Of a stretch of 64,000 nucleotides of DNA, positions 2,417 to 60,705 are shown piece after piece. The stretch lies in the NCBI GenBank assembly GCA_964291285.2, contig OZ219786.1:672001-736000 (forward strand). Direction: 5' to 3'. The position numbers were made by a program, and so were the translations under genes. The first letter of the stretch is position 1. Each line of letters begins with the position of its first letter. Origin of the DNA: Alphaproteobacteria bacterium (lineage in GTDB: Bacteria > Pseudomonadota > Alphaproteobacteria > Bin95). Below the pieces are notes generated by a model. It searched no databases. It saw only the letters and a program-made list of their open reading frames with translations, and was not told where the DNA came from.

Positions 2417-2598
2417 CAAATTGAGGCCTCTGATCCGGACAGCTGGCGCACAATTGTACCGATGCAATCACACTTAAATATCATCTTTGCAGATGTCAAA
2501 CTCTCAGCGCTATTGGGGAAGTTGCGGTCCCGTTTCTTGGTTTCCTCCGCACATGGCGCCTGCTCGGCCAGCCCGCCGCCCCGGCGCTCAGGGAGCTG

Positions 2599-2622
2599 TA
2601 AAGGGTGGTTCCCGGCGGGCGG
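2599..2622 (+). repeat. 24-bp direct repeat, copy 2 (TAAAGGGTGGTTCCCGGCGGGCGG)
   Basis: 23/24 identical to 2005-2028. Confidence 0.85.
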
Positions 2623-2672
2623 CGGCGCGCTATGCTGGCCGGGACATCCATGCGGACGGGGGAGAGAGCGTC

Positions 2673-3440
2673 ATGGCGGGAATGCTGGCGGGCAAGGCGG
2701 CGCTGATTACCGGAGGTGCGAACGGGATCGGGCGGGCGACGGCGCTGCTTTTTGCGCAGGAAGGGGCGCGGGTCGCGGCGGCCGACCTCAATCTCGAAGG
2801 GGCGGAGGAGACCGCCGCCATGATCCGCGAGGCCGGCGGCGAGGCGATTGCGCTCTCCGTCGAGGTGTCGGACGCCGGACAGGTCGAGGCGATGGTCGAG
2901 GCGACCGTGGAGGCGTTCGGGCGGATCGACTGCGCCTTCAACAATGCCGGCATTGCGCCCGTCAATGTCGGCAACAACGCCAAGCGGACGCATAGCTGGT
3001 CGGAGGAAGGGTTCGACCGGATGATCGAGGTCAATCTCAAGGGCGTGTGGCTGTGCATGAAGAGCGAGATCGCGCGCATGCTGGAGACCGGCGGCGGGAC
3101 CATCGTCAACACCTCCTCCATCGCGGGCCTCGCCGGCCTGCCGACCTCGTCCGGCTATGTCGCCGCCAAGCACGGCGTCTCCGGCCTCACGCGCACCGCC
3201 GGCATCGAATACGCCACCGACAATATCCGCGTGAACGCCGTCTGCCCCGGCTTCATCGCCACCGACATGACCCGCGAGGTCATGTCCCGGCGCGGCAACG
3301 AGCTCATGGCCCTGGTGCCGGCGCGGCGGATGGGCGAGGCGCGGGAGATCGCCGAGATGGTCTGCTGGCTCTGCTCGGACCGCTCCGGATTCGTCACCGG
3401 GGCCACCTACAATGTCGATGGCGGCTACATGGCGTCCTGA
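2673..3440 (+). CDS. Short-chain dehydrogenase/reductase (classical SDR)
   Basis: TGGANGIG Rossmann motif, NNAG and YVAAK catalytic motif. RBS GGAGAG before the ATG at 2673. Confidence 0.92.
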   Translation: MAGMLAGKAALITGGANGIGRATALLFAQEGARVAAADLNLEGAEETAAMIREAGGEAIALSVEVSDAGQVEAMVEATVEAFGRIDCAFNNAGIAPVNVGNNAKRTHSWSEEGFDRMIEVNLKGVWLCMKSEIARMLETGGGTIVNTSSIAGLAGLPTSSGYVAAKHGVSGLTRTAGIEYATDNIRVNAVCPGFIATDMTREVMSRRGNELMALVPARRMGEAREIAEMVCWLCSDRSGFVTGATYNVDGGYMAS

Positions 3441-3467: not shown

Positions 3468-4238
3468 ATGGCCGGAATGCTGGCGGGCAAGGCGGCGCTG
3501 ATTACCGGGGCCGCGAACGGCATCGGGCGGGCGACGGCGCTGCTTTTCGCGCAGGAAGGCGCGCGGGTGGCGGCGGCCGACCTCAACCTCGAAGGGGCGG
3601 AGGAGACCGCCGCCACGATCCGCGAGGCGGGCGGCGAGGCGGTTGCGCTTCCCGTCGAGGTGGTCGAGGCCGAGCAGGTCGAGGCGATGCTGGATGCGGC
3701 GGTCGAGGCCTTCGGGCGGATCGACTGCGCCTTCAACAATGCGGGCATCGGACCGGCGAATCTCGACCATTACGCCCGGCGCACCCATGAATGGACCGAG
3801 GAAGGCTTCGACCGGATGATCGCGGTCAACCTCAAGGGCGTGTGGCTCTGCATGAAGGGCGAGATCGAGCGGATGAAGGCGGACGAAGGCGGCGGGGCCA
3901 TCGTCAACACCTCCTCGGTCGCCGGCCTGCTCGGCCTGCCGGGCGGCAGCGCCTATGTGGCGGCCAAGCATGCCGTCTCGGGCCTCACGCGCACCGCCGG
4001 CATCGAATACGCCTCGGACGGCATCCGCGTGAACGCCGTCTGCCCCGGCTATATCGCGACCGACATGACGCGCGAGGCCCGCGCCCGGCGCGGCAACGAG
4101 CTCATGAACCGCGTGCCGGCCCGGCGCATGGGCGAGGCGCATGAGATCGCCGAGATGGTCTGCTGGCTCTGCTCCGAGCGCTCAAGCTACGTCACCGGCG
4201 CCACCTACAATGTCGATGGCGGCTACGTGGCATCGTGA
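3468..4238 (+). CDS. Short-chain dehydrogenase/reductase, tandem paralog of the previous gene
   Basis: TGAANGIG, NNAG and YVAAK motifs. Colinear with and highly similar to 2673-3440. Confidence 0.92.
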   Translation: MAGMLAGKAALITGAANGIGRATALLFAQEGARVAAADLNLEGAEETAATIREAGGEAVALPVEVVEAEQVEAMLDAAVEAFGRIDCAFNNAGIGPANLDHYARRTHEWTEEGFDRMIAVNLKGVWLCMKGEIERMKADEGGGAIVNTSSVAGLLGLPGGSAYVAAKHAVSGLTRTAGIEYASDGIRVNAVCPGYIATDMTREARARRGNELMNRVPARRMGEAHEIAEMVCWLCSERSSYVTGATYNVDGGYVAS

Positions 4239-4354
4239 CCACAGAGGGGCGCGAAAGCCGGGCCGTCGCCGTCCCCGGCCGGTCGGCCGGCGGCCCGGCG
4301 CGCTGGCGCGGCTCCTGGACGAACGGCGAGGCCGTGCCTGCAGCCAGGACTTTT

Positions 4355-4623
4355 TTCGTTCGATTTTTATGAAATAATTCAGAATTAAAGCTTAACCTCT
4401 GAGAAGTCCGATCTAATATAGGGCGAGAGGAAGGGAGCGGTATCCGCGCGGGGCCGCTTCTTCTCCCGGTTCGCGCCGGCGCACAAAACCCTGAGAAATG
4501 GACGGGAGATGTACGCCCTGCGTTCGGGCCTCGCGCGCGCGGGCGCAATCAGGCGCGCGATTCGCGCCGCCGCGGGACGTGCGCAGGCGCGCGCGGGGGC
4601 GCCCGCGCAGGATACGCGCGAAT
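4355..4623 (+). repeat. Dispersed structured intergenic element, diverged copy 1 (ends at the IS1634 junction)
   Basis: Shares the AT-rich TGAAAT block, the AGCGG..CCGCTTC hairpin (4435-4460), GCGCAATCAGGCGCGCGA..CGCGCC (4543-4568) and GGCGCCCGCGCAGGATACGCGCGAAT (4598-4623) with the copies at 38.9 and 58.7 kb. Confidence 0.75.
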
Positions 4624-6643
4624 TAGCCCGACTTCCGCAACTCGGGGGTCATGAGGATGCTAACTCATTGAATAGCCTTGATCGTCTCCCCGAGGGTCGG
4701 CACTACAAGGCGGCGAACGGAGAGGCGGCGCCGTGTGCCGTCAGGCGGAGATCCGGGGTGCGGGTTGCTGCGGCCAGGTCATGCCGAGCTGTTGCAGCAG
4801 TAGCTCGTGCTCCTTGTTCGGCCGGGTGTGGCGCGGCAGGACGAGGTGCCGGCCGTCGGTGGTTGGCAGATGGACGTCCACCATCTGGATGGTGGCGAAG
4901 GCCTCAAGGATGGCGCGTGGGGTGAGGCCCGGGGCGCGCGGCCGGGCGAGGTTCTTCAGGGTCACCAGCAGGCAGTAGGCGATGAACGAGACGAAGATAT
5001 GCGCCTCGATGCGCTCTTGGCGCTGATGGAAGATGGGGCGGATCGCGAGGTCGTGCTTGAGTTCCTTGAACGCCTGCTCGATCTCGACGAGCTGCATGTA
5101 CAGATGCCACAGCGTGGCGGGGTCTTCGGCGACCATGTTGGATCGCAGCAGGTAACGGCCCTCGCGGCGGCGGACCTGGCGCAGCCGGTCGCGCTGCAGG
5201 CGGAATGAGAAGCCGTTGGCGGCGAGTTCGCTGTCGGTCCCGGGCACGGTGATGTCGACCAGGCTCCAGGCCCGGCCGGCCTCCTTCCTGGCGGCGCCGA
5301 GCTTGAGCAACAACTGATCCCGGCTGTTCGACTGCCCTTGCAACTCGGCCAATCGACGCCACAGCCTCTTCAGCCGGCGCCGGCGCATGCCGCGTTCCTT
5401 CACCTGCCGCCCCTCGCTGCGCACCAGGACGTAGAGCTCGCCATCCTCGACCAGAAGCTTGACAGTCACGGACTGGCGCACCTCCTGCCAGGGCAGGCCC
5501 AGGAACACCTTCTCGAGCCGCGTCAGCCGGCCCTTGGGCGTGCCCACCAGGTAGCGCACCGGCGCCTCGCCCTCGCGCATCGCGGCCAGCGTCTCCTCGG
5601 TGGGGATGCCGCGGTCCATGATCCACACCCGCTCGGAGCGGCCATACTGATCCTCGATCTTCTTGAGGAACGCCGCCAGCGTGGTGTCGTCGGAGGTGTT
5701 GCCCGGCATCACCTCATAGGCCAGCGGAAAGCCCTGCGGCGTAACGATCAGGGCGATCACCACCTGCACGCAGTCGGGCCGCTTGTCCCGGCTGTAGCCG
5801 AAGCGGCGCTTGTCATCGAACGGCGGATCGCTCTCGAAGTAGGTCGAGGTCAGGTCGTAGAGCAGCACGTCGAAGCGCGCCTCGAACAGCGTCGCCCAGC
5901 GGTCGCGCAGAAACGAGAAGAAGCCCTGCTTGTGCGCCAGCAGCTTGTCGAGACAGCGATAGAGTGTGTCGTCGGCGATCGCCCGCTCGCCACCCAGAAG
6001 ATCGCGAAGCGCGCTGTGCTCATACCAGTGACGGTGAAGGCGCCACTCGCTGCCCGGGTCGATCAGCCGGTAGCAGACCTGGATCTTCAGGATGTCCAGC
6101 CACCGCGTGCCTTGCCGGCTCGCCGGCAGCCGCTCTTCCCAGAAGCGGTCCAGGTCCAGGCGGTCCCACAAGGACAGCGCCAGCCAGCACGCCCCCCACT
6201 GGCGCGGGTCGTGAAGCGCCACCTGCGAGAGGTCGATCTTCACCACTTCGCAAGTCAGCGCCGGCGCCTCCCGGTCCTCGGGAAACAGCGCCATCTGCCG
6301 TGATCGCGACTTGCCCTCCACCACCTCGATCGAGCGGCACCACGCCGCTCGCTGGCTGTCGTTGATCTCCCCGAGATAGAGCACCTGACGCTGAACAACC
6401 CGACCGCCGTGGACCCGGACGTTCTCCACAACGCTCCAGTAGCGGTGCTCCTTGCCGTCCTTGAAGCGTCTCTTGCAGCGCACGAACATCAGCGCAGCGT
6501 CCGGATCTTCGCCAGCCCGATCAAGGGGGTAGGTCGGCACTACAAGCCGGTCCCGAGAGGTACTGCACCGAAATCCGACACTTCTCGCGCCGGAAAACCG
6601 TCAAATCAGTCGATTCTCAAGCCGAGTTGCGGAAGTCGGGCTA
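4624..6643 (-). mobile_element. IS1634-family insertion sequence, copy B (complete, 2020 bp counting the terminal TA)
   Basis: Inverted ends TAGCCCGACTTCCGCAACTCGG at 4624 and CCGAGTTGCGGAAGTCGGGCTA ending at 6643. The terminal TA may be a 2-bp target duplication. Confidence 0.92.
4741..6540 (-). CDS. IS1634-family DDE transposase
   Basis: Identical translation to 90-1889. Confidence 0.9.
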   Translation of the reverse strand: MPTYPLDRAGEDPDAALMFVRCKRRFKDGKEHRYWSVVENVRVHGGRVVQRQVLYLGEINDSQRAAWCRSIEVVEGKSRSRQMALFPEDREAPALTCEVVKIDLSQVALHDPRQWGACWLALSLWDRLDLDRFWEERLPASRQGTRWLDILKIQVCYRLIDPGSEWRLHRHWYEHSALRDLLGGERAIADDTLYRCLDKLLAHKQGFFSFLRDRWATLFEARFDVLLYDLTSTYFESDPPFDDKRRFGYSRDKRPDCVQVVIALIVTPQGFPLAYEVMPGNTSDDTTLAAFLKKIEDQYGRSERVWIMDRGIPTEETLAAMREGEAPVRYLVGTPKGRLTRLEKVFLGLPWQEVRQSVTVKLLVEDGELYVLVRSEGRQVKERGMRRRRLKRLWRRLAELQGQSNSRDQLLLKLGAARKEAGRAWSLVDITVPGTDSELAANGFSFRLQRDRLRQVRRREGRYLLRSNMVAEDPATLWHLYMQLVEIEQAFKELKHDLAIRPIFHQRQERIEAHIFVSFIAYCLLVTLKNLARPRAPGLTPRAILEAFATIQMVDVHLPTTDGRHLVLPRHTRPNKEHELLLQQLGMTWPQQPAPRISA

Positions 6644-38694: not shown

Positions 38695-38919
38695 CTCCCT
38701 TCATCGAACAAATTCCGATGCGAAAGATTGACTGAAGCCATGATAATGCGATTAGTTTGCATTCTTAATTGGAACATGCAGAGCTTGAACACGATCCGTT
38801 CAGGTTGACCCGGCCCCGTCCGCAAAGCCTCAATCATCGCCCCGGCCCCCCGATCGGGGGCGATGAAGGTGTATGGCAAAAAATTCCTGAAATTTATGCA
38901 ATGATTCCTTATTTGGGAC

Positions 38920-38946
38920 TTGCACCTGAGAAAACAGTGATATGAT
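38920..38946 (+). promoter_or_regulatory. Putative sigma70 extended -10 promoter (TGaTATGAT)
   Basis: TG-n-TATGAT at 38938-38946 in an AT-rich island, with TTGCAC upstream. GTGATATGAT is conserved in copy 3 at 58713-58722. Confidence 0.55.
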
Positions 38947-39206
38947 GGGTCCGAAGTAAGCGGCATCCGGAGCCGCTTCCCGCTCGTGCCGGCCCGGTGC
39001 GGAACGACCCCGATTCAGCCGACAGGCGAAGTGCGTCCTGCGCCTGCCCCGCGCACGCGCAATCAGGCGCGCGAACCGCGCCGGCGCAAACGCCCGCCCC
39101 CGCCGGCACAGGCGCCCGCGCGGGATACGCGCGAATCAGGGTCCCGCCGCTGAGGCAACCGGGCGGCGGGAAGAACGGAACGAAGACGGATCGAAAGGAG
39201 AGACCC

Positions 39207-39302
39207 ATGCCAAAGACGCGAAGCCGGGGACACCGGATGGAATACCCGGAGCCCATGCCCGAACAGGTCACGGGATATGCGCCGCGCGCATGCAGATCAT
39301 GA
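39207..39302 (+). CDS. Putative 31-aa peptide inside the element (MPKTRSRGHRMEYPEPMPEQVTGYAPRACRS)
   Basis: Strong RBS AAAGGAGA upstream. The stop codon lies in the first CATGACA unit. Confidence 0.35.
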   Translation: MPKTRSRGHRMEYPEPMPEQVTGYAPRACRS

Positions 39303-39366
39303 CATCTCATGACATATCGCACGGGGTCCCGCCGGCCCGCATGACAAAACATGACATCCCATGACA
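39298..39366 (+). repeat. CATGACA heptamer array (5 units)
   Basis: Units start at 39298, 39308, 39340, 39350 and 39360, with a 10-bp period within each group. Confidence 0.9.
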
Positions 39367-57361: not shown

Positions 57362-58540
57362 ATGAAATACGACGTCATCGTCATCGGCGGCGGGCTTCAC
57401 GGCAGCAGCACGGCTTATCACCTGGCCGTCCGCGAACCGGGGCTCGGCATCGCGGTGGTCGAGCGCGACCCGGCCTATGAGCATGCCGCCTCGATCCGCT
57501 CGACGGCCGGCGTGCGGGCCATGTTCTCGCAGGAAGAGAATGTGCGCATGTCGCAATACGGCCACGAGTTCTACCGGGGCTACGAGCGGACGATGACCGT
57601 GGACGGCGATCCGGCCACCGTGTCCTTTCGCCGTCAGGGCTATCTGCACATCGCGACTTCGCCCGAAATGGCCGGGAGCATGCGCGCCAATCACGCGCTC
57701 CAGAGACGCCTCGGCTGCAATGTCGACCTTCTCGATGCGGCCGGGACGGCGTCCCGCTTTCCCTCGCTCCGCACCGGCGACATGGTCTGCGCGACCCACT
57801 CCCCCGACGACGGCTGGATCGATTCGCACGGCGCGCTGACGGCGCTCAGGCGCAAGGCGCGGGCGCTCGGCGTCAGCTACATCGCGGGCTCGGTGGCCGG
57901 TCTGAACGTCTCCTCCGGCCTCGTCCGTTCGGTTGCGCTCGAAAGCGGCGAGGTGCTGGAGGGCGACCGGGTCGTCAACAATGCCGGCGCTTGGGCGCAC
58001 GAGGTCTCTGCGATGGTCGGCCTCGACATTCCGGTCCGCCCGATGCCGCGCACGACCTGGTTTTTCGACTGCCGGGCGGAGATCGAGCCGCTGCCGCTCA
58101 CCACTGACGCCGCGAACGGCCATTCGATCGGGTTCCGGCCCGAAGGCGCGGGCTTTATCGCAGGCATATCCGACTACGAGCGCACCGGCGATTTCGACTG
58201 GGAGCCGGACCTGGAAGGGTTCGAGAGCGAGGCGTGGCCGCGCCTCGCGCACCGCGTGCCGGCGTTCGAGGCGATCCGGCTCAGGAACGCCTGGGCCTGC
58301 CACTACGCCTACAACACCTTCGACGGAAACATGATTATCGGCGCATGGCCGGGCGCGCCGGAGAATTTCCTCATCGCGACCGGGTTTTCCGGCCACGGCC
58401 TCCAGCACGCGCCGGCGGCGGGCCGGGCGCTCTCGGAACTGATTCTCGACGGAGGCTTTGCGACCATCGATCTCGACCGCTTCCATTGCCGACGCGTCCC
58501 CGAAAACAGGCGCGAACCGGAGCGCGGCGTAACCGCTTGA
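57362..58540 (+). CDS. FAD-dependent oxidoreductase (DadA/sarcosine oxidase beta/FOXRED1-like)
   Basis: VIVIGGGLHG, VVNNAGAWA and GFSGHGLQHAPA. Confidence 0.9.
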   Translation: MKYDVIVIGGGLHGSSTAYHLAVREPGLGIAVVERDPAYEHAASIRSTAGVRAMFSQEENVRMSQYGHEFYRGYERTMTVDGDPATVSFRRQGYLHIATSPEMAGSMRANHALQRRLGCNVDLLDAAGTASRFPSLRTGDMVCATHSPDDGWIDSHGALTALRRKARALGVSYIAGSVAGLNVSSGLVRSVALESGEVLEGDRVVNNAGAWAHEVSAMVGLDIPVRPMPRTTWFFDCRAEIEPLPLTTDAANGHSIGFRPEGAGFIAGISDYERTGDFDWEPDLEGFESEAWPRLAHRVPAFEAIRLRNAWACHYAYNTFDGNMIIGAWPGAPENFLIATGFSGHGLQHAPAAGRALSELILDGGFATIDLDRFHCRRVPENRREPERGVTA

Positions 58541-58996
58541 CACGTTGCATTAGAGCGGCACCCGTTCGGGTTGAAACGGCTTCGTCCGTAAAGCCTCAAG
58601 CATCACCCCGGACGGCACGTCAGCAGCCTGCCCCGGACTTGATCCGGGGCGACGAGCCTTTCATGAAATTTAGGTAATATTTCTCTATTTCTGGTCTGAA
58701 TCAGGAAAACCCGTGATATGATGGGTTCGAGGTAAGCGGCATCCGGAGCCGCTTCCCGCCCGCGCCGGCCCGGTGCGGAACGACCCCGATTCAGCCGACA
58801 GGCGAGGCGCGTCCTGCGCCTGCCTCGCGCACGCGCAATCAGGCGCGCGAACCGCGCCGGCGCAATGGCGCGCCCGCGCCGGCACAGGCGCCCGCGCAGG
58901 ATACGCGCGAATAGGGGTCGCTCCGATGCCGGGACGGTGCGTCTGCCAACCCGCTCCGGTGTCCGCACCGGGCGCAAGCCGAACCAGGGAGCCGCC

Positions 58997-59296
58997 ATGC
59001 CTATCATCGACCCGACCGTCGCCCTCTCCACCCGCCAGGAAGCCTTCTGCCGCCACTGCACGGCTTCCGGCAATGCCGCAGACGCCGCAAGGCGCGCCGG
59101 CTATGCCGAACGCTCCGCAAGGCAGACAGGATGCGCGCTCCTGGAGCGGCCCTGGATCGTGGAGAACATCGAACAGCGCCGCCGGGACAGCCTCGACTGG
59201 CTCCAGAGGGCCGGACCCCTCAATGCGCCCCGGCAGCCGGACGGGCCCGACGGCGGGGATTTCACCCCGACCATGACAAAACATGACATTTCATGA
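58997..59296 (+). CDS. Terminase small subunit-like HTH protein (99 aa)
   Basis: LSTRQEAFCRH..GNAADAARRAGY.ERSARQTGCALLERPWI matches the TerS N-terminal pattern (LT.KQ..F...Y....NAT.AA..AGYS..A...G..LL..P.I). RBS AGGGAG. Confidence 0.72.
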   Translation: MPIIDPTVALSTRQEAFCRHCTASGNAADAARRAGYAERSARQTGCALLERPWIVENIEQRRRDSLDWLQRAGPLNAPRQPDGPDGGDFTPTMTKHDIS

Positions 59297-59298
59297 CA
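59272..59298 (+). repeat. CATGACA heptamer triplet (10-bp period)
   Basis: CATGACAAAACATGACATTTCATGACA; 25/27 identical to 39340-39366. Confidence 0.9.
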
Positions 59299-59332
59299 CG
59301 GCGCTGGAGTGGGCCCCTTGGGTCGGACAGTT

Positions 59333-60127
59333 TCACGCGGCATTTTTGACAGGGTTGCGTTGTTGTTTCTCCTCGAAGCGGTTTGGGCTCAGATATCCGA
59401 GGGCGGAGTGCAGGCGTCTGTGGTTGTAGCTGTCGATGAAGCGTGGCAGTTGCCTTGCGACGTCTTCGGCGGTCTCGAAGGCCATGGGATAGACGCCTTC
59501 GACCTTCAGGGTTTTCATGAAGCTCTCCATCATGGCGTTGTCGTAGGGGTTGGCTCGTCGTCCCATGGAGCCGACCATCCCGTGTTTGTCGAGCCGGGTC
59601 CGGTAGGCATGGGCGGCGTATTGCGAGCCCCTGTCGGAGTGGTGGATGCAGCCGGGCTGAGGGCTTCGGTTCCCGATCGCCTTGTCGAGCGCCGCGAGCG
59701 TCAGGCGCGCGTCGATGCGTTGCCCGAGCGCGTAGCCGACAATGCGGCGCGACCAGGCGTCCATGACCGCCGCCAGATAGACGAAGCCGTCCAGGATGGC
59801 GATGTAGGTCAGGTCGGCGACCCAGAGCCGGTTCGGGCCCTCGACCTCGCAGTCCCGGGACCGGTCCGGGAAGACCGGCCCGTCGTGGCCGCTGTCCGTG
59901 GTGGCGACAAAGCGGCGCTTGCGCGGCGGCTGCAGGGCGTGTTCGCGCATCAGCCGCCTGACCTTCTTGTGGTTGACGGTCCGGCCCCGGTGGCGAAGTT
60001 CCGCCTGCATGCGCCGCCAGCCATAGGCCTCGAACTCGTCCTTGATCTCGTGCATCGCCTCGACCAGGGCGGTGTCGTCGACCGGGCTCTGCGGCTCGCG
60101 GTAACAGGTGGAGCGCGCGATCCCCAT
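59333..60127 (-). CDS. IS3-family transposase OrfB (rve integrase core)
   Basis: YGWRRM, WVADLTYI, HHSDRGSQY, DNAMMESF and HSALGY. Confidence 0.92.
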   Translation of the reverse strand: MGIARSTCYREPQSPVDDTALVEAMHEIKDEFEAYGWRRMQAELRHRGRTVNHKKVRRLMREHALQPPRKRRFVATTDSGHDGPVFPDRSRDCEVEGPNRLWVADLTYIAILDGFVYLAAVMDAWSRRIVGYALGQRIDARLTLAALDKAIGNRSPQPGCIHHSDRGSQYAAHAYRTRLDKHGMVGSMGRRANPYDNAMMESFMKTLKVEGVYPMAFETAEDVARQLPRFIDSYNHRRLHSALGYLSPNRFEEKQQRNPVKNAA

Positions 60128-60477
60128 CAGTCGGCATCCTTCGGCAACGGAGAGGCCTCGGGGCCGGCGATCACGGACATGGGCGCGCGCCTCGACCGCC
60201 GTCCTTGCCGCAAAGCCCCCTTTAGGAACTCCAGCTCCGCGGCCTGCCGGCCGACCAGCCGTTCGAGCGTCGCGATCCGGGCCTCATACGCCCGGAGCGT
60301 GTCAGCCGCCTCGGCCTCCTCATCGAAGGCGCCGGCCTCGTATTTCTCCAGCCACAGCCGGATCAGGGTGCGAGACAGGTCATGACGGCGGGCCAGACCG
60401 TAAAACGTCTCGCCTGCCAGATACTCCTCAACGACCTGGCGCTTGAAGGCCATGCTGTGCGTGCGGTGCTTCCTCAT
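60127..60477 (-). CDS. IS3-family transposase OrfA (HTH)
   Basis: MRKHRTHSMAFKRQVVEEY..LARRHDLSRTLIRLW. Its stop overlaps the OrfB ATG (TGATG). Confidence 0.88.
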   Translation of the reverse strand: MRKHRTHSMAFKRQVVEEYLAGETFYGLARRHDLSRTLIRLWLEKYEAGAFDEEAEAADTLRAYEARIATLERLVGRQAAELEFLKGALRQGRRSRRAPMSVIAGPEASPLPKDAD

Positions 60478-60705
60478 CGGCGTCGATCCTTCCAATGACC
60501 GCGCACCTGTCAATTTCCTACAACAAAACTGTCCGAGACCAGGGGCCCACTCCACGCGAGAGGGCGCCGCCACTCCTCTCTTCTCCCGCCTGCAGGGGAA
60601 GCCGCGGACGGGGGAACGGGAGTGCATGCAATCCGCGTCCGGGGGTGGTAAACCGTCCGCCTCCGGTTTTCCTGCACACCCGATGCCCGTTTGAAGGACG
60701 ACGAC

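Follow-up and report, generated by a model that had tools for sequence, protein, structure and literature searches.

How does an open reading frame (ORF) that resembles the gene of a phage small terminase subunit (TerS) come to lie inside a repeat element of an alphaproteobacterial genome, and what, if anything, does it do there? The question is raised by positions 58997-59298 of a 64,000-nt stretch of contig OZ219786.1 from an Alphaproteobacteria bacterium (referred to below as the window, i.e. the whole stretch of DNA that was analysed). An initial annotation of this locus had proposed either a minimal packaging cassette, consisting of a terS gene and its pac site, or a domesticated DNA-binding protein that acts as regulator of the element. 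We searched the window's own genome (G000; 6.1 Mb in five contigs) with the repeat unit and with the ORF, and collected relatives of the encoded protein from public genomes. The ORF, of 99 amino acids (aa), has arisen by an in-frame internal deletion from the gene of a 329-aa TerS-derived protein, and the best explanation is that it is a decayed and non-autonomous form of what is the main cargo gene in a repeat unit specific to the genus. There are about 100 such units per genome, distributed over all five contigs. The ORF is thus probably a dead copy of the gene for a phage-derived DNA-binding protein, and the question of function shifts to the intact protein and to the array of short repeats with which the units end.

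The 99-aa ORF is an internal-deletion derivative

The ORF, including its stop, occupies positions 58997-59296 of the plus strand (ATG at 58997, codons through 59293, TGA at 59294-59296) and its start is preceded by a purine-rich AGGGAG at 58986-58991. The GC content at third codon positions is 0.80 in this frame versus 0.68 in the overlapping minus-strand ORF. The gene end that had originally been given, 59298, is a valid coordinate for the repeat array (CATGACA at 59272-59278, 59282-59288 and 59292-59298, plus strand) and not for the ORF, the stop of which ends at 59296. That the last codons are formed by the array itself was seen correctly (ACC ATG ACA AAA CAT GAC ATT TCA TGA, i.e. T M T K H D I S stop). 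The N-terminal helix-turn-helix (HTH) of TerS was likewise recognized for what it is: residues 11-62 (59027-59182, plus strand) match positions 2-53 of the 141 positions of Pfam family Terminase_2 (PF03592) at E 1.3e-9 and 39.2 bits (cut-off 26.1), which covers the HTH only, and PHROGs small-terminase families match the same part. In agreement with the earlier description no phage genes were met near the ORF, which is followed by an IS3-family insertion sequence (IS) and then by ORFs of metabolic appearance, as judged by eye and without a Pfam run.

The gene is no orphan. In the window's own genome the repeat unit gave 59 matches and a tblastn search with the 99-aa ORF gave 22 segments; read from their start codons, the family copies comprise 10 intact ORFs of 329-336 aa and 8 shortened ones of 99, 89, 89, 81, 57, 57, 51 and 51 aa. 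When the 99-aa ORF is aligned to the full-length family member P0106, its residues 1-56 fall on residues 1-56 and its residues 42-95 on residues 257-312, which corresponds to an in-frame loss of about 210 codons between the similar motifs ERPWIVE and DPWSPE and leaves residues 1-56 plus about 266-312 of the full-length type. The deletion junction lies between the two PW..E motifs, after codon 56 (nt 59164/59165, within 59150-59170 of the plus strand). Residues ~57-268 of the 329-aa parent, which include the helices expected to form the TerS ring, are therefore missing, and what had been taken for a minimal autonomous cassette is a remnant that keeps the HTH without the ring helices. A copy with an HTH and an array and without ring helices could act at most as a passive site or as a competitor, not as a working terminase subunit. 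The same junction recurs at two other loci (C2:599649 and C1:23217), both of which carry additional in-frame deletions within the HTH, so that the deleted form looks unselected.

A repeat unit with a fixed 3' end and variable cargo

In an alignment of ten intact loci with their flanks the order of parts is constant, namely an AT-rich promoter stretch, a leader of about 290 nt, a Shine-Dalgarno sequence, the ORF and the array, and the similarity ceases immediately past the array. The 3' end of the unit consists of three CATGACA heptamers with a period of 10 bp, or one helical turn, and its right edge lies just past the third heptamer. The 5' edge can not be fixed to the base, as the alignments fade some 60-90 nt upstream of the -10 element, and no inverted repeat that joins the two ends was found; a weak motif that resembles CATGAAA and is seen near the start of part of the units was considered as a terminal repeat and rejected as too inconsistent. 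The units measure 0.45-1.5 kb and hold one ORF or none.

The leader core has 96 profile matches (nhmmer) in the window's own genome, and the heptamer triplet occurs 91 times exactly and 109 times with up to two mismatches, on all five contigs; within the window the heptamer doublet pattern has 5 matches versus 0 in 100 shuffles. An array follows within 1.6 kb downstream on the same strand for 76 of the 96 cores, and a core precedes within 1.6 kb for 90 of the 109 arrays. At several of the 19 arrays that lack an upstream core, IS insertions separate the two, and the longer core-to-array intervals are explained by ISs or by unrelated genes. All 18 TerS-like copies have the core and 17 of them the full array. 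The link between paralogs and core, which had been named as a point to check, therefore holds in 18 of 18 copies here; in other genomes the core was found at 57 and the array at 54 of 80 loci, 8 of these loci having no upstream sequence because they lie at contig ends. Units with the same ends and without a TerS gene, the existence of which had been assumed, are indeed present in large numbers.

With 18 copies, the TerS-like gene is one of the cargos of these units. Another is the P0122 family, an acidic, proline-rich protein of 192-241 aa that starts with MTATDPRPALAA and has at least four intact copies plus truncated derivatives (e.g. C2:1233771-1234427, i.e. L126:472-1125); it shares the promoter, leader and array of the TerS-like units and has no match in Pfam, NCBIfam or PADLOC. 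The remaining cargos are found in many short units, of which one frequent type, represented in the window by the second copy described below, has an ORF of 31 codons and an additional pair of heptamers; most cargos are short and variable, and they are probably non-coding.

Since the period of 10 bp leaves a remainder of one upon division by three, ATGA, an overlapping start and stop, is present in all three frames of the array. Cargo ORFs terminate in at least two frames within it (…DHDKT stop and …KHDIS/KHDIP stop), and conservation extends to all seven heptamer positions, not to TGA or ATG alone. For thirteen ORFs the start seemed to fall within an array, which is most probably due to crude ORF calling. 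Tandem arrays about 200 nt apart were also observed (C1:228056/228255, C1:1183962/1184160/1184354, C3:319153/319352 and C4:370487/370686); like stacked mini-cassettes, the intervals each hold an ORF of 63-70 codons with its start (MTFHDIHGG…) in one array, and the full-length ORFs (66-70 codons) have their end in the following one. Further arrays are doubled at a spacing of 43-58 nt.

Distribution over genomes and exchange between copies

The search of public genomes returned 118 places with a relative of the protein, and the 80 loci mentioned above are those that were kept for the counts. All 80 are from uncultured Alphaproteobacteria; the two record titles that state a source point to sponges, and most of the public runs in which the sequence occurs bear the label of sponge metagenomes, with no RNA runs listed among them. 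In the most distant group (44-61% protein identity) the core profile fails, yet an array lies downstream at six loci. The exact triplet is present in 14 of the 17 genomes of the genus, in 7 to 129 copies, and absent from three complete, smaller genomes of the genus as well as from all 20 genomes of two sister genera, whereas the reversed control pattern has no match in any of the 37 genomes searched. The repeat unit is therefore genus-specific. The protein co-occurs with the array: of the 14 genomes with arrays 13 have it, and of the three without arrays none does.

Within each genome the copies are alike. In a protein tree of 66 sequences the copies group by genome (9 of 10 for the window's own genome), and at the shared site (L007 in the window's own genome, L119 in G007) the flanking gene is 91-100% identical per 100-nt bin (about 95%) as compared to 66-93% (about 80%) for the unit, the protein at L119 being 72% identical to the copies of the window's genome and thereby as distant as any other G007 copy. 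The likeness within genomes together with the divergence at the shared site suggests concerted evolution of the repeat family. In addition, a stretch that runs from mid-leader through the last heptamer is shared at about 99.5% identity by two loci of the window's own genome, which differ in promoters and P1 hairpins (see below) and have unrelated flanks. From these patterns, exchange between units appears to be frequent, one of its edges being fixed by the array. Given such exchange, or gene conversion, shared deletion junctions need not mean transposition, and identical junctions, which were considered as proof of transposition, lose weight accordingly.

Direct traces of insertion were looked for as well. 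At two loci that were compared with genomes of the same genus no clean empty site was found; one genome has a unit at the same site, and in the others the sequences cease to resemble each other at the unit or ahead of it. The Logan contigs of four DNA runs end at the repeat, and none of them spans an empty site; the summed depth over the core in these runs is far above that of the flanks, a figure that is not a copy number. No target duplication was seen either, with a 5' edge of the unit that is known only approximately.

The intact TerS-derived protein

In the case of the intact protein P0001 (329 aa) the match to Terminase_2 (42.6 bits; cut-off 26.1) stops at profile position 61 of 141. Among 8,000 candidates scored, 310 relatives were recovered at E up to 0.001, many of them on multi-megabase contigs, and the few that bear a name are called 'terminase small subunit'. 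In the AlphaFold2 (AF2) model, built from 29 sequences, the confidence score (pLDDT) exceeds 90 for the HTH and is about 80-85 for helices 52-90 and 93-107, and the remainder is of low confidence (mean 62.9) and without strands. The best match in a structure search (Foldseek) is the DNA-binding domain of SF6 G1P (4zc3; template-modelling (TM) score 0.85, root-mean-square deviation 1.6 A, 39% identity), followed by full-length SF6 G1P and by the PaP3 and NV1 small terminases, none of which reaches E 0.001. A sequence search of the PDB left SF6 TerS as the sole credible match, next to two matches to fused isobutyryl-CoA mutase at E 0.77. Among deposited phages 25 records match with 28-48% identity, all of them over residues 7-129 and none beyond.

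The part that follows has a different character. Residues 113-300 gave 35 matches in 1.84 billion representatives, with lengths and positions consistent with the same family or fragments of it, and conserved motifs are present in the C-terminal part of the family alignment. As judged by sequence similarity and predicted fold, the first 110-125 residues of the intact protein are derived from a small terminase of the SPP1/SF6 G1P type, as found in pac phages, and the remaining ~200 residues are, by the same searches, found only in this family. Neither a C-terminal beta-barrel nor a TerL-interacting tail (TerL being the large terminase subunit) was seen in P0001, in which no strands are modelled and residues 113-300 match their own family only, and profile searches revealed no transposase domain in P0001 or P0122. 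Searches for other functions yielded little: in the ESM Atlas the best matches of residues 60-329 are viral hypothetical proteins at 0.87-0.89, below the mark of 0.9 and therefore a lead only; PADLOC had no match for the three proteins tested; and the single NCBIfam match of 14.5 bits, against a cut-off of 400, was treated as noise.

The ratio of non-synonymous to synonymous substitution rates (dN/dS) has a median of 0.27 over 45 pairs of intact copies. The intact protein is thus under purifying selection and, by this substitution pattern, can be regarded as functional. Its central helices 52-90 and 93-107, the candidate ring core, are predicted in P0001 and absent from the 99-aa ORF; a model of four copies of residues 1-115 has a best score of 0.23 versus a mark of 0.42, and weighs neither for nor against a ring.

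Promoter and leader of the units in the window

The window contains three copies of the unit, all on the plus strand. The first, which carries the deleted TerS-like ORF between leader core and array, spans 58660-59298 (left edge approximate); the second, at 38884-39366, consists of promoter and core, a 31-codon ORF, extra heptamers at 39298-39314 and the triplet at 39340-39366; the third, at 4340-4622 (left edge approximate), has a core that is interrupted by a 2,007-bp IS (core profile match 4430-4626). Positions 58660-58941 are 85% identical to positions 38884-39165. The ORF had been described as lying downstream of a conserved promoter and core, of which the core is real (58713-58924 of the plus strand, i.e. 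C2:730713-730924; nhmmer, 179 bits) and the promoter is not of the consensus type in this particular copy: an extended -10 element, TGaTATGAT, can be read from the sequence at 58714-58722 (plus strand) with a degenerate -35 element, and a sigma-70 consensus scan of 58400-59500 returned no promoter site. Most other copies have a near-consensus TTGACA/TTGCAT-17-TATGAT at the aligned place. In the first copy the -35 region (58696-58705) is replaced by a palindrome, CTGAATCAG, that is common to at least five other copies (e.g. C1:227648 and C3:1311960) and that may be an operator. Another short repeat (…CCGTTCRGGTTGA…AAGCCTCAA…, then a GC hairpin) lies directly upstream of two units, at 58555-58650 and 38780-38870, and has a few further partial copies in the genome (9 BLAST segments).

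The leader RNA may be structured in part. No Rfam family matches the window at gathering scores, and a scan for intrinsic terminators at the first unit gave none. The 5' hairpin P1 (GGTAAGCGGC / GCCGCTTCCC; 58731-58757, plus strand), which was recognized as an inverted repeat, pairs in 89% of the cells of an alignment of 77 cores, as compared to 45-65% for slid controls, and 20 cells change on both sides, a number that is reached in 4 of 500 shuffles; covariation across the cores thus lends the putative hairpin modest support. RNAalifold, run on the same 77 cores, gave a weak consensus of -9.4 kcal/mol and missed P1. Two long-range leader helices, to which inverted repeats had pointed, are conserved in sequence and pair in 71-93% of the cells, and were rejected because their covariation does not exceed that of shuffles; the leader structure as a whole, P1 included, pairs at 79% versus about 40% when slid. 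As a guess, the 5' stem-loop would fit a role in mRNA stabilisation.

Insertion sequences at the units

The IS3-family element that follows the first unit (59305-60554, minus strand; 1,250 bp) starts 6 bp past the array and is flanked by a 3-bp duplication, CGC, at 59302-59304 and 60555-60557. Its ends are TGGAGTGGGCCCC... and ...GGGGCCCACTCCA, and Pfam identifies an OrfB with rve and HTH_21 and an OrfA with HTH_Tnp_1. The exact 13-nt end of the element occurs 23 times in the genome, in 12 cases exactly 6 bp past an array; the cases beyond the window are C2:1256608, C2:44383, C3:1370493 and 8 more. The element thus appears to use the arrays as a landing site, and targeting at a fixed distance suggests that, in the cell, the array adopts a distinctive structure or is occupied by a protein.

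The 2,007-bp IS, which encodes a 599-aa DDE_Tnp_1 transposase, has 55 BLAST segments in the genome, 10 of which abut the core at the same position in either orientation; the third unit of the window is one of these ten. Two inverted copies that are 100% identical (1-2007 and 4623-6629) enclose 2.6 kb with tandem paralogues at 2487-3440 and 3468-4238, which by eye are labelled as short-chain-dehydrogenase-like, a layout that resembles a composite transposon.

What does the intact protein do at the array?

We favour, with a probability of roughly 0.45, the reading that the cassettes form a selfish family and that their TerS-derived protein docks on the array. The protein would assemble into a TerS-like ring with neighbouring HTHs about one DNA turn apart, and this ring would dock on the phased heptamers that close every unit. 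The resulting nucleoprotein complex would mark the 3' boundary of the unit and the site of DNA breakage or exchange, from where repair from another copy would proceed leftward until the shared leader is met. Such copy-directed repair would homogenise the units within a genome and would carry cargo, deleted forms like the window copy included, into other units. According to a study of these proteins, adjacent HTHs in SF6-type rings are about one turn of B-DNA apart, and the pac site of SPP1 carries direct repeats (PMC4737164).

Several points weigh against docking and copying. The same study describes the SF6 HTH as binding DNA weakly and with little sequence specificity (PMC4737164), which is a poor fit with an invariant heptamer. 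The same ends are found on the second cargo family and on many short units, all of which lack the TerS-derived protein, so that the latter could be mere cargo, and the presence of TGA and ATG in all three frames implies that part of the conservation of the array could serve translation. In one genome (G008) 7 arrays are present without any copy of the protein; in another (G009) 67 arrays are accompanied by gene fragments only, in an assembly of 280 contigs, and G022 likewise holds fragments only. No catalytic domain is predicted in the intact protein by Pfam, the AF2 model or the C-terminal search, and no nuclease partner was identified. The arrival of new units at new places is left unexplained by the break-and-copy model, and mobility itself is not demonstrated, the searches having revealed neither an empty site nor a target duplication nor terminal inverted repeats.

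The alternative that survives best, although we consider it unlikely, is that the units are packaging cassettes, i.e. that the protein recruits the TerL of a helper phage or of a particle resembling a gene transfer agent (GTA) to the arrays, so that headful packaging from about 100 pac-like sites moves host DNA, units without the protein being pac-only sites. The derivation of the protein from a pac-type small terminase speaks for this, as do the spread of the arrays over all five contigs and the role of the array as a boundary of DNA exchange. SPP1-type pac sites have this appearance, with phased direct repeats that adjoin the terS gene or lie inside it (PMC4737164), and satellites manipulate the packaging of their helpers (PMC11417361). 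A resident partner is, however, not supported, which leaves an outside helper phage as a conceivable one. Terminase_6N has no hit in the genome (the other TerL families of Pfam were not searched genome-wide), and all 12 Terminase_2 hits belong to the TerS-derived family studied here. Phage_capsid has one weak match, in a 13-kb island outside the window (L125; C2:84000-98000) that holds this capsid-like ORF, a portal-like ORF (36.8 bits, below the cut-off), a TerL_nuclease match of 25 bits, a D5-type primase split by an IS and a P4-type integrase, and that may be a capsid-forming satellite or a prophage remnant. This lone TerL-like gene in a decaying, IS-disrupted island does not track the arrays, its relatives being present in 5 of the 17 genomes of the genus versus 14 of the 17 for the arrays, and the packaging function that had been suggested for the locus thus finds no resident terminase. 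Moreover, the region past residue 125 is unrelated to that of any phage TerS, its 35 matches being family-like, no beta-strands are predicted in the protein, and packaging does not account for the multiplication of units within the genome.

Slightly less probable still is that the units form a regulon rather than mobile DNA, in which a domesticated HTH factor on the array acts as a roadblock that stops or tunes read-through of strongly transcribed units and may also autoregulate. The near-consensus promoters of most units, the lack of an intrinsic terminator at the window unit (0 sites) and the purifying selection on the protein would agree with this; old occupancy of sites is possible, given one site common to two species, and SF6-type TerS was proposed to act as a switch from transcription to packaging or back (PMC4737164). 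A regulator, however, has no need of 10 intact plus decaying copies, a range of 0 to 129 arrays among species of one genus is a pattern of selfish DNA, and the short, variable and probably non-coding nature of most cargos does not suggest a regulon. Neither do the neighbouring genes, the orientation of which is not strongly biased: 43 units are followed by a gene on their own strand and 33 by one on the opposite strand, counts that also led us to reject the units as a means to deliver promoters to downstream genes.

An equally doubtful alternative holds that the TerS-like gene is one of several passengers, the array being recognised by a host recombinase, by the IS3 transposase or by another factor, or working mainly as a three-frame stop/start signal. 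In its favour, these ends are found on many short units and on at least two kinds of protein cargo that are unrelated to each other; to this can be added the 7 arrays that G008 keeps without the gene, the ATGA in all three frames and the ORFs that end in two frames within the array. Conservation of all seven heptamer positions argues against a mere translational signal, however, and the TerS-derived protein is the sole cargo with many intact, selected copies and co-occurs with the arrays in 13 of 14 genomes. Finally, it is improbable to the same degree that the domesticated small terminase and its ~100 arrays are genome-wide packaging-initiation sites for an incoming pac-type phage, or for a particle of the resident island with capsid, portal and TerL-like genes, such that the whole multi-replicon genome is transducible and the same complex drives a transposase-free, break-and-copy spread of the cassettes.

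Comparison with known systems and significance

If the TerS-derived protein binds the arrays, a phage DNA-recognition module would be re-used outside the virus at about 100 chromosomal sites, be it as the trans-factor of transposase-free selfish cassettes, as a source of genome-wide transduction starts or as a roadblock regulator. This would represent a new way for bacterial repeat families to arise and to stay uniform, and would bear on DNA exchange among uncultured sponge symbionts, which are rich in ISs and defence islands. By landing at a distance of exactly 6 bp from the array, the IS3-family element offers a ready test system for the target choice of DDE transposases. At the level of annotation, the label 'terminase small subunit' among the 300-plus relatives in these genomes should not be taken to signal prophages. 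In the main texts of open-access papers and preprints we found no description of the repeat family.

The closest known relatives of the protein are SPP1/SF6 G1P (Terminase_2; PDB 4ZC3, 2CMP and 3ZQQ), with which it shares an N-terminal HTH (39-40% identity over 50-56 residues, TM 0.82-0.85) and, in the model, long helices after the HTH as in the ring-forming core. Phased direct repeats at the gene are a further likeness, to the pac site of SPP1 (PMC4737164). In contrast to G1P, the protein has no beta-barrel or TerL-binding tail and instead a 200-residue region found in this family only, its gene has 10 intact chromosomal copies without adjoining TerL, portal or capsid genes, and the repeats are located at the 3' end of the gene.

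The small terminase of SaPI is a packaging specifier that is encoded by a satellite. As in SaPI, and as in the case of GpsA/GpsB and pac mimicry in PLE (PMC11417361), phage-derived packaging-recognition parts with the potential to redirect the motor of a helper are found here on non-phage DNA. The phage satellites (PICI, PLE, PICMI, P4-like) are, however, single-copy islands of 5-20 kb with integrase and replication genes, whereas the repeat units measure 0.45-1.5 kb, have about 100 copies and carry neither type of gene. In the case of GTAs, the agent of Rhodobacter capsulatus is said to be served by a small terminase in the alphaproteobacterial chromosome and to act in the transfer of host DNA. 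The TerS of a GTA lies in a head-tail cluster, and none was found here, where tail genes were not looked for and the head-type genes met are the capsid hit and the portal-like ORF near the integrase and the IS-split primase.

Among the repeat families, REP/BIME are palindromes of 20-40 nt without promoter or ORF, RAYT is a catalytic HUH enzyme that is usually present in a single copy, and the IS3-family elements IS1397 and ISKpn1 insert into REPs. The likeness consists of abundant intergenic repeats that are tied to one domesticated protein of mobile-element origin and that serve as a landing site for an IS3-family element; the difference is that the units are cassettes with promoter and ORF and that only the DNA-binding module of the protein is recognizable, a comparison made by inspection and without a search for RAYT. 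With families of ISs and miniature inverted-repeat transposable elements (MITEs) the units share the presence of intact as well as internally deleted copies that keep both ends, and of the same junction at several loci, and they differ in having no transposase domain, no terminal inverted repeats and no target duplication that was seen. Unlike integron gene cassettes (intI was not searched for), the units are dispersed and have their own promoter, and their 3' end is a direct heptamer repeat instead of an imperfect palindrome. The repeat family fits none of the known kinds of mobile element considered here, IS/MITE, satellites and GTAs being set aside by searches, integrons by architecture and REP/BIME by inspection, and the TerS-derived protein that it carries is a new variant of the small-terminase family.

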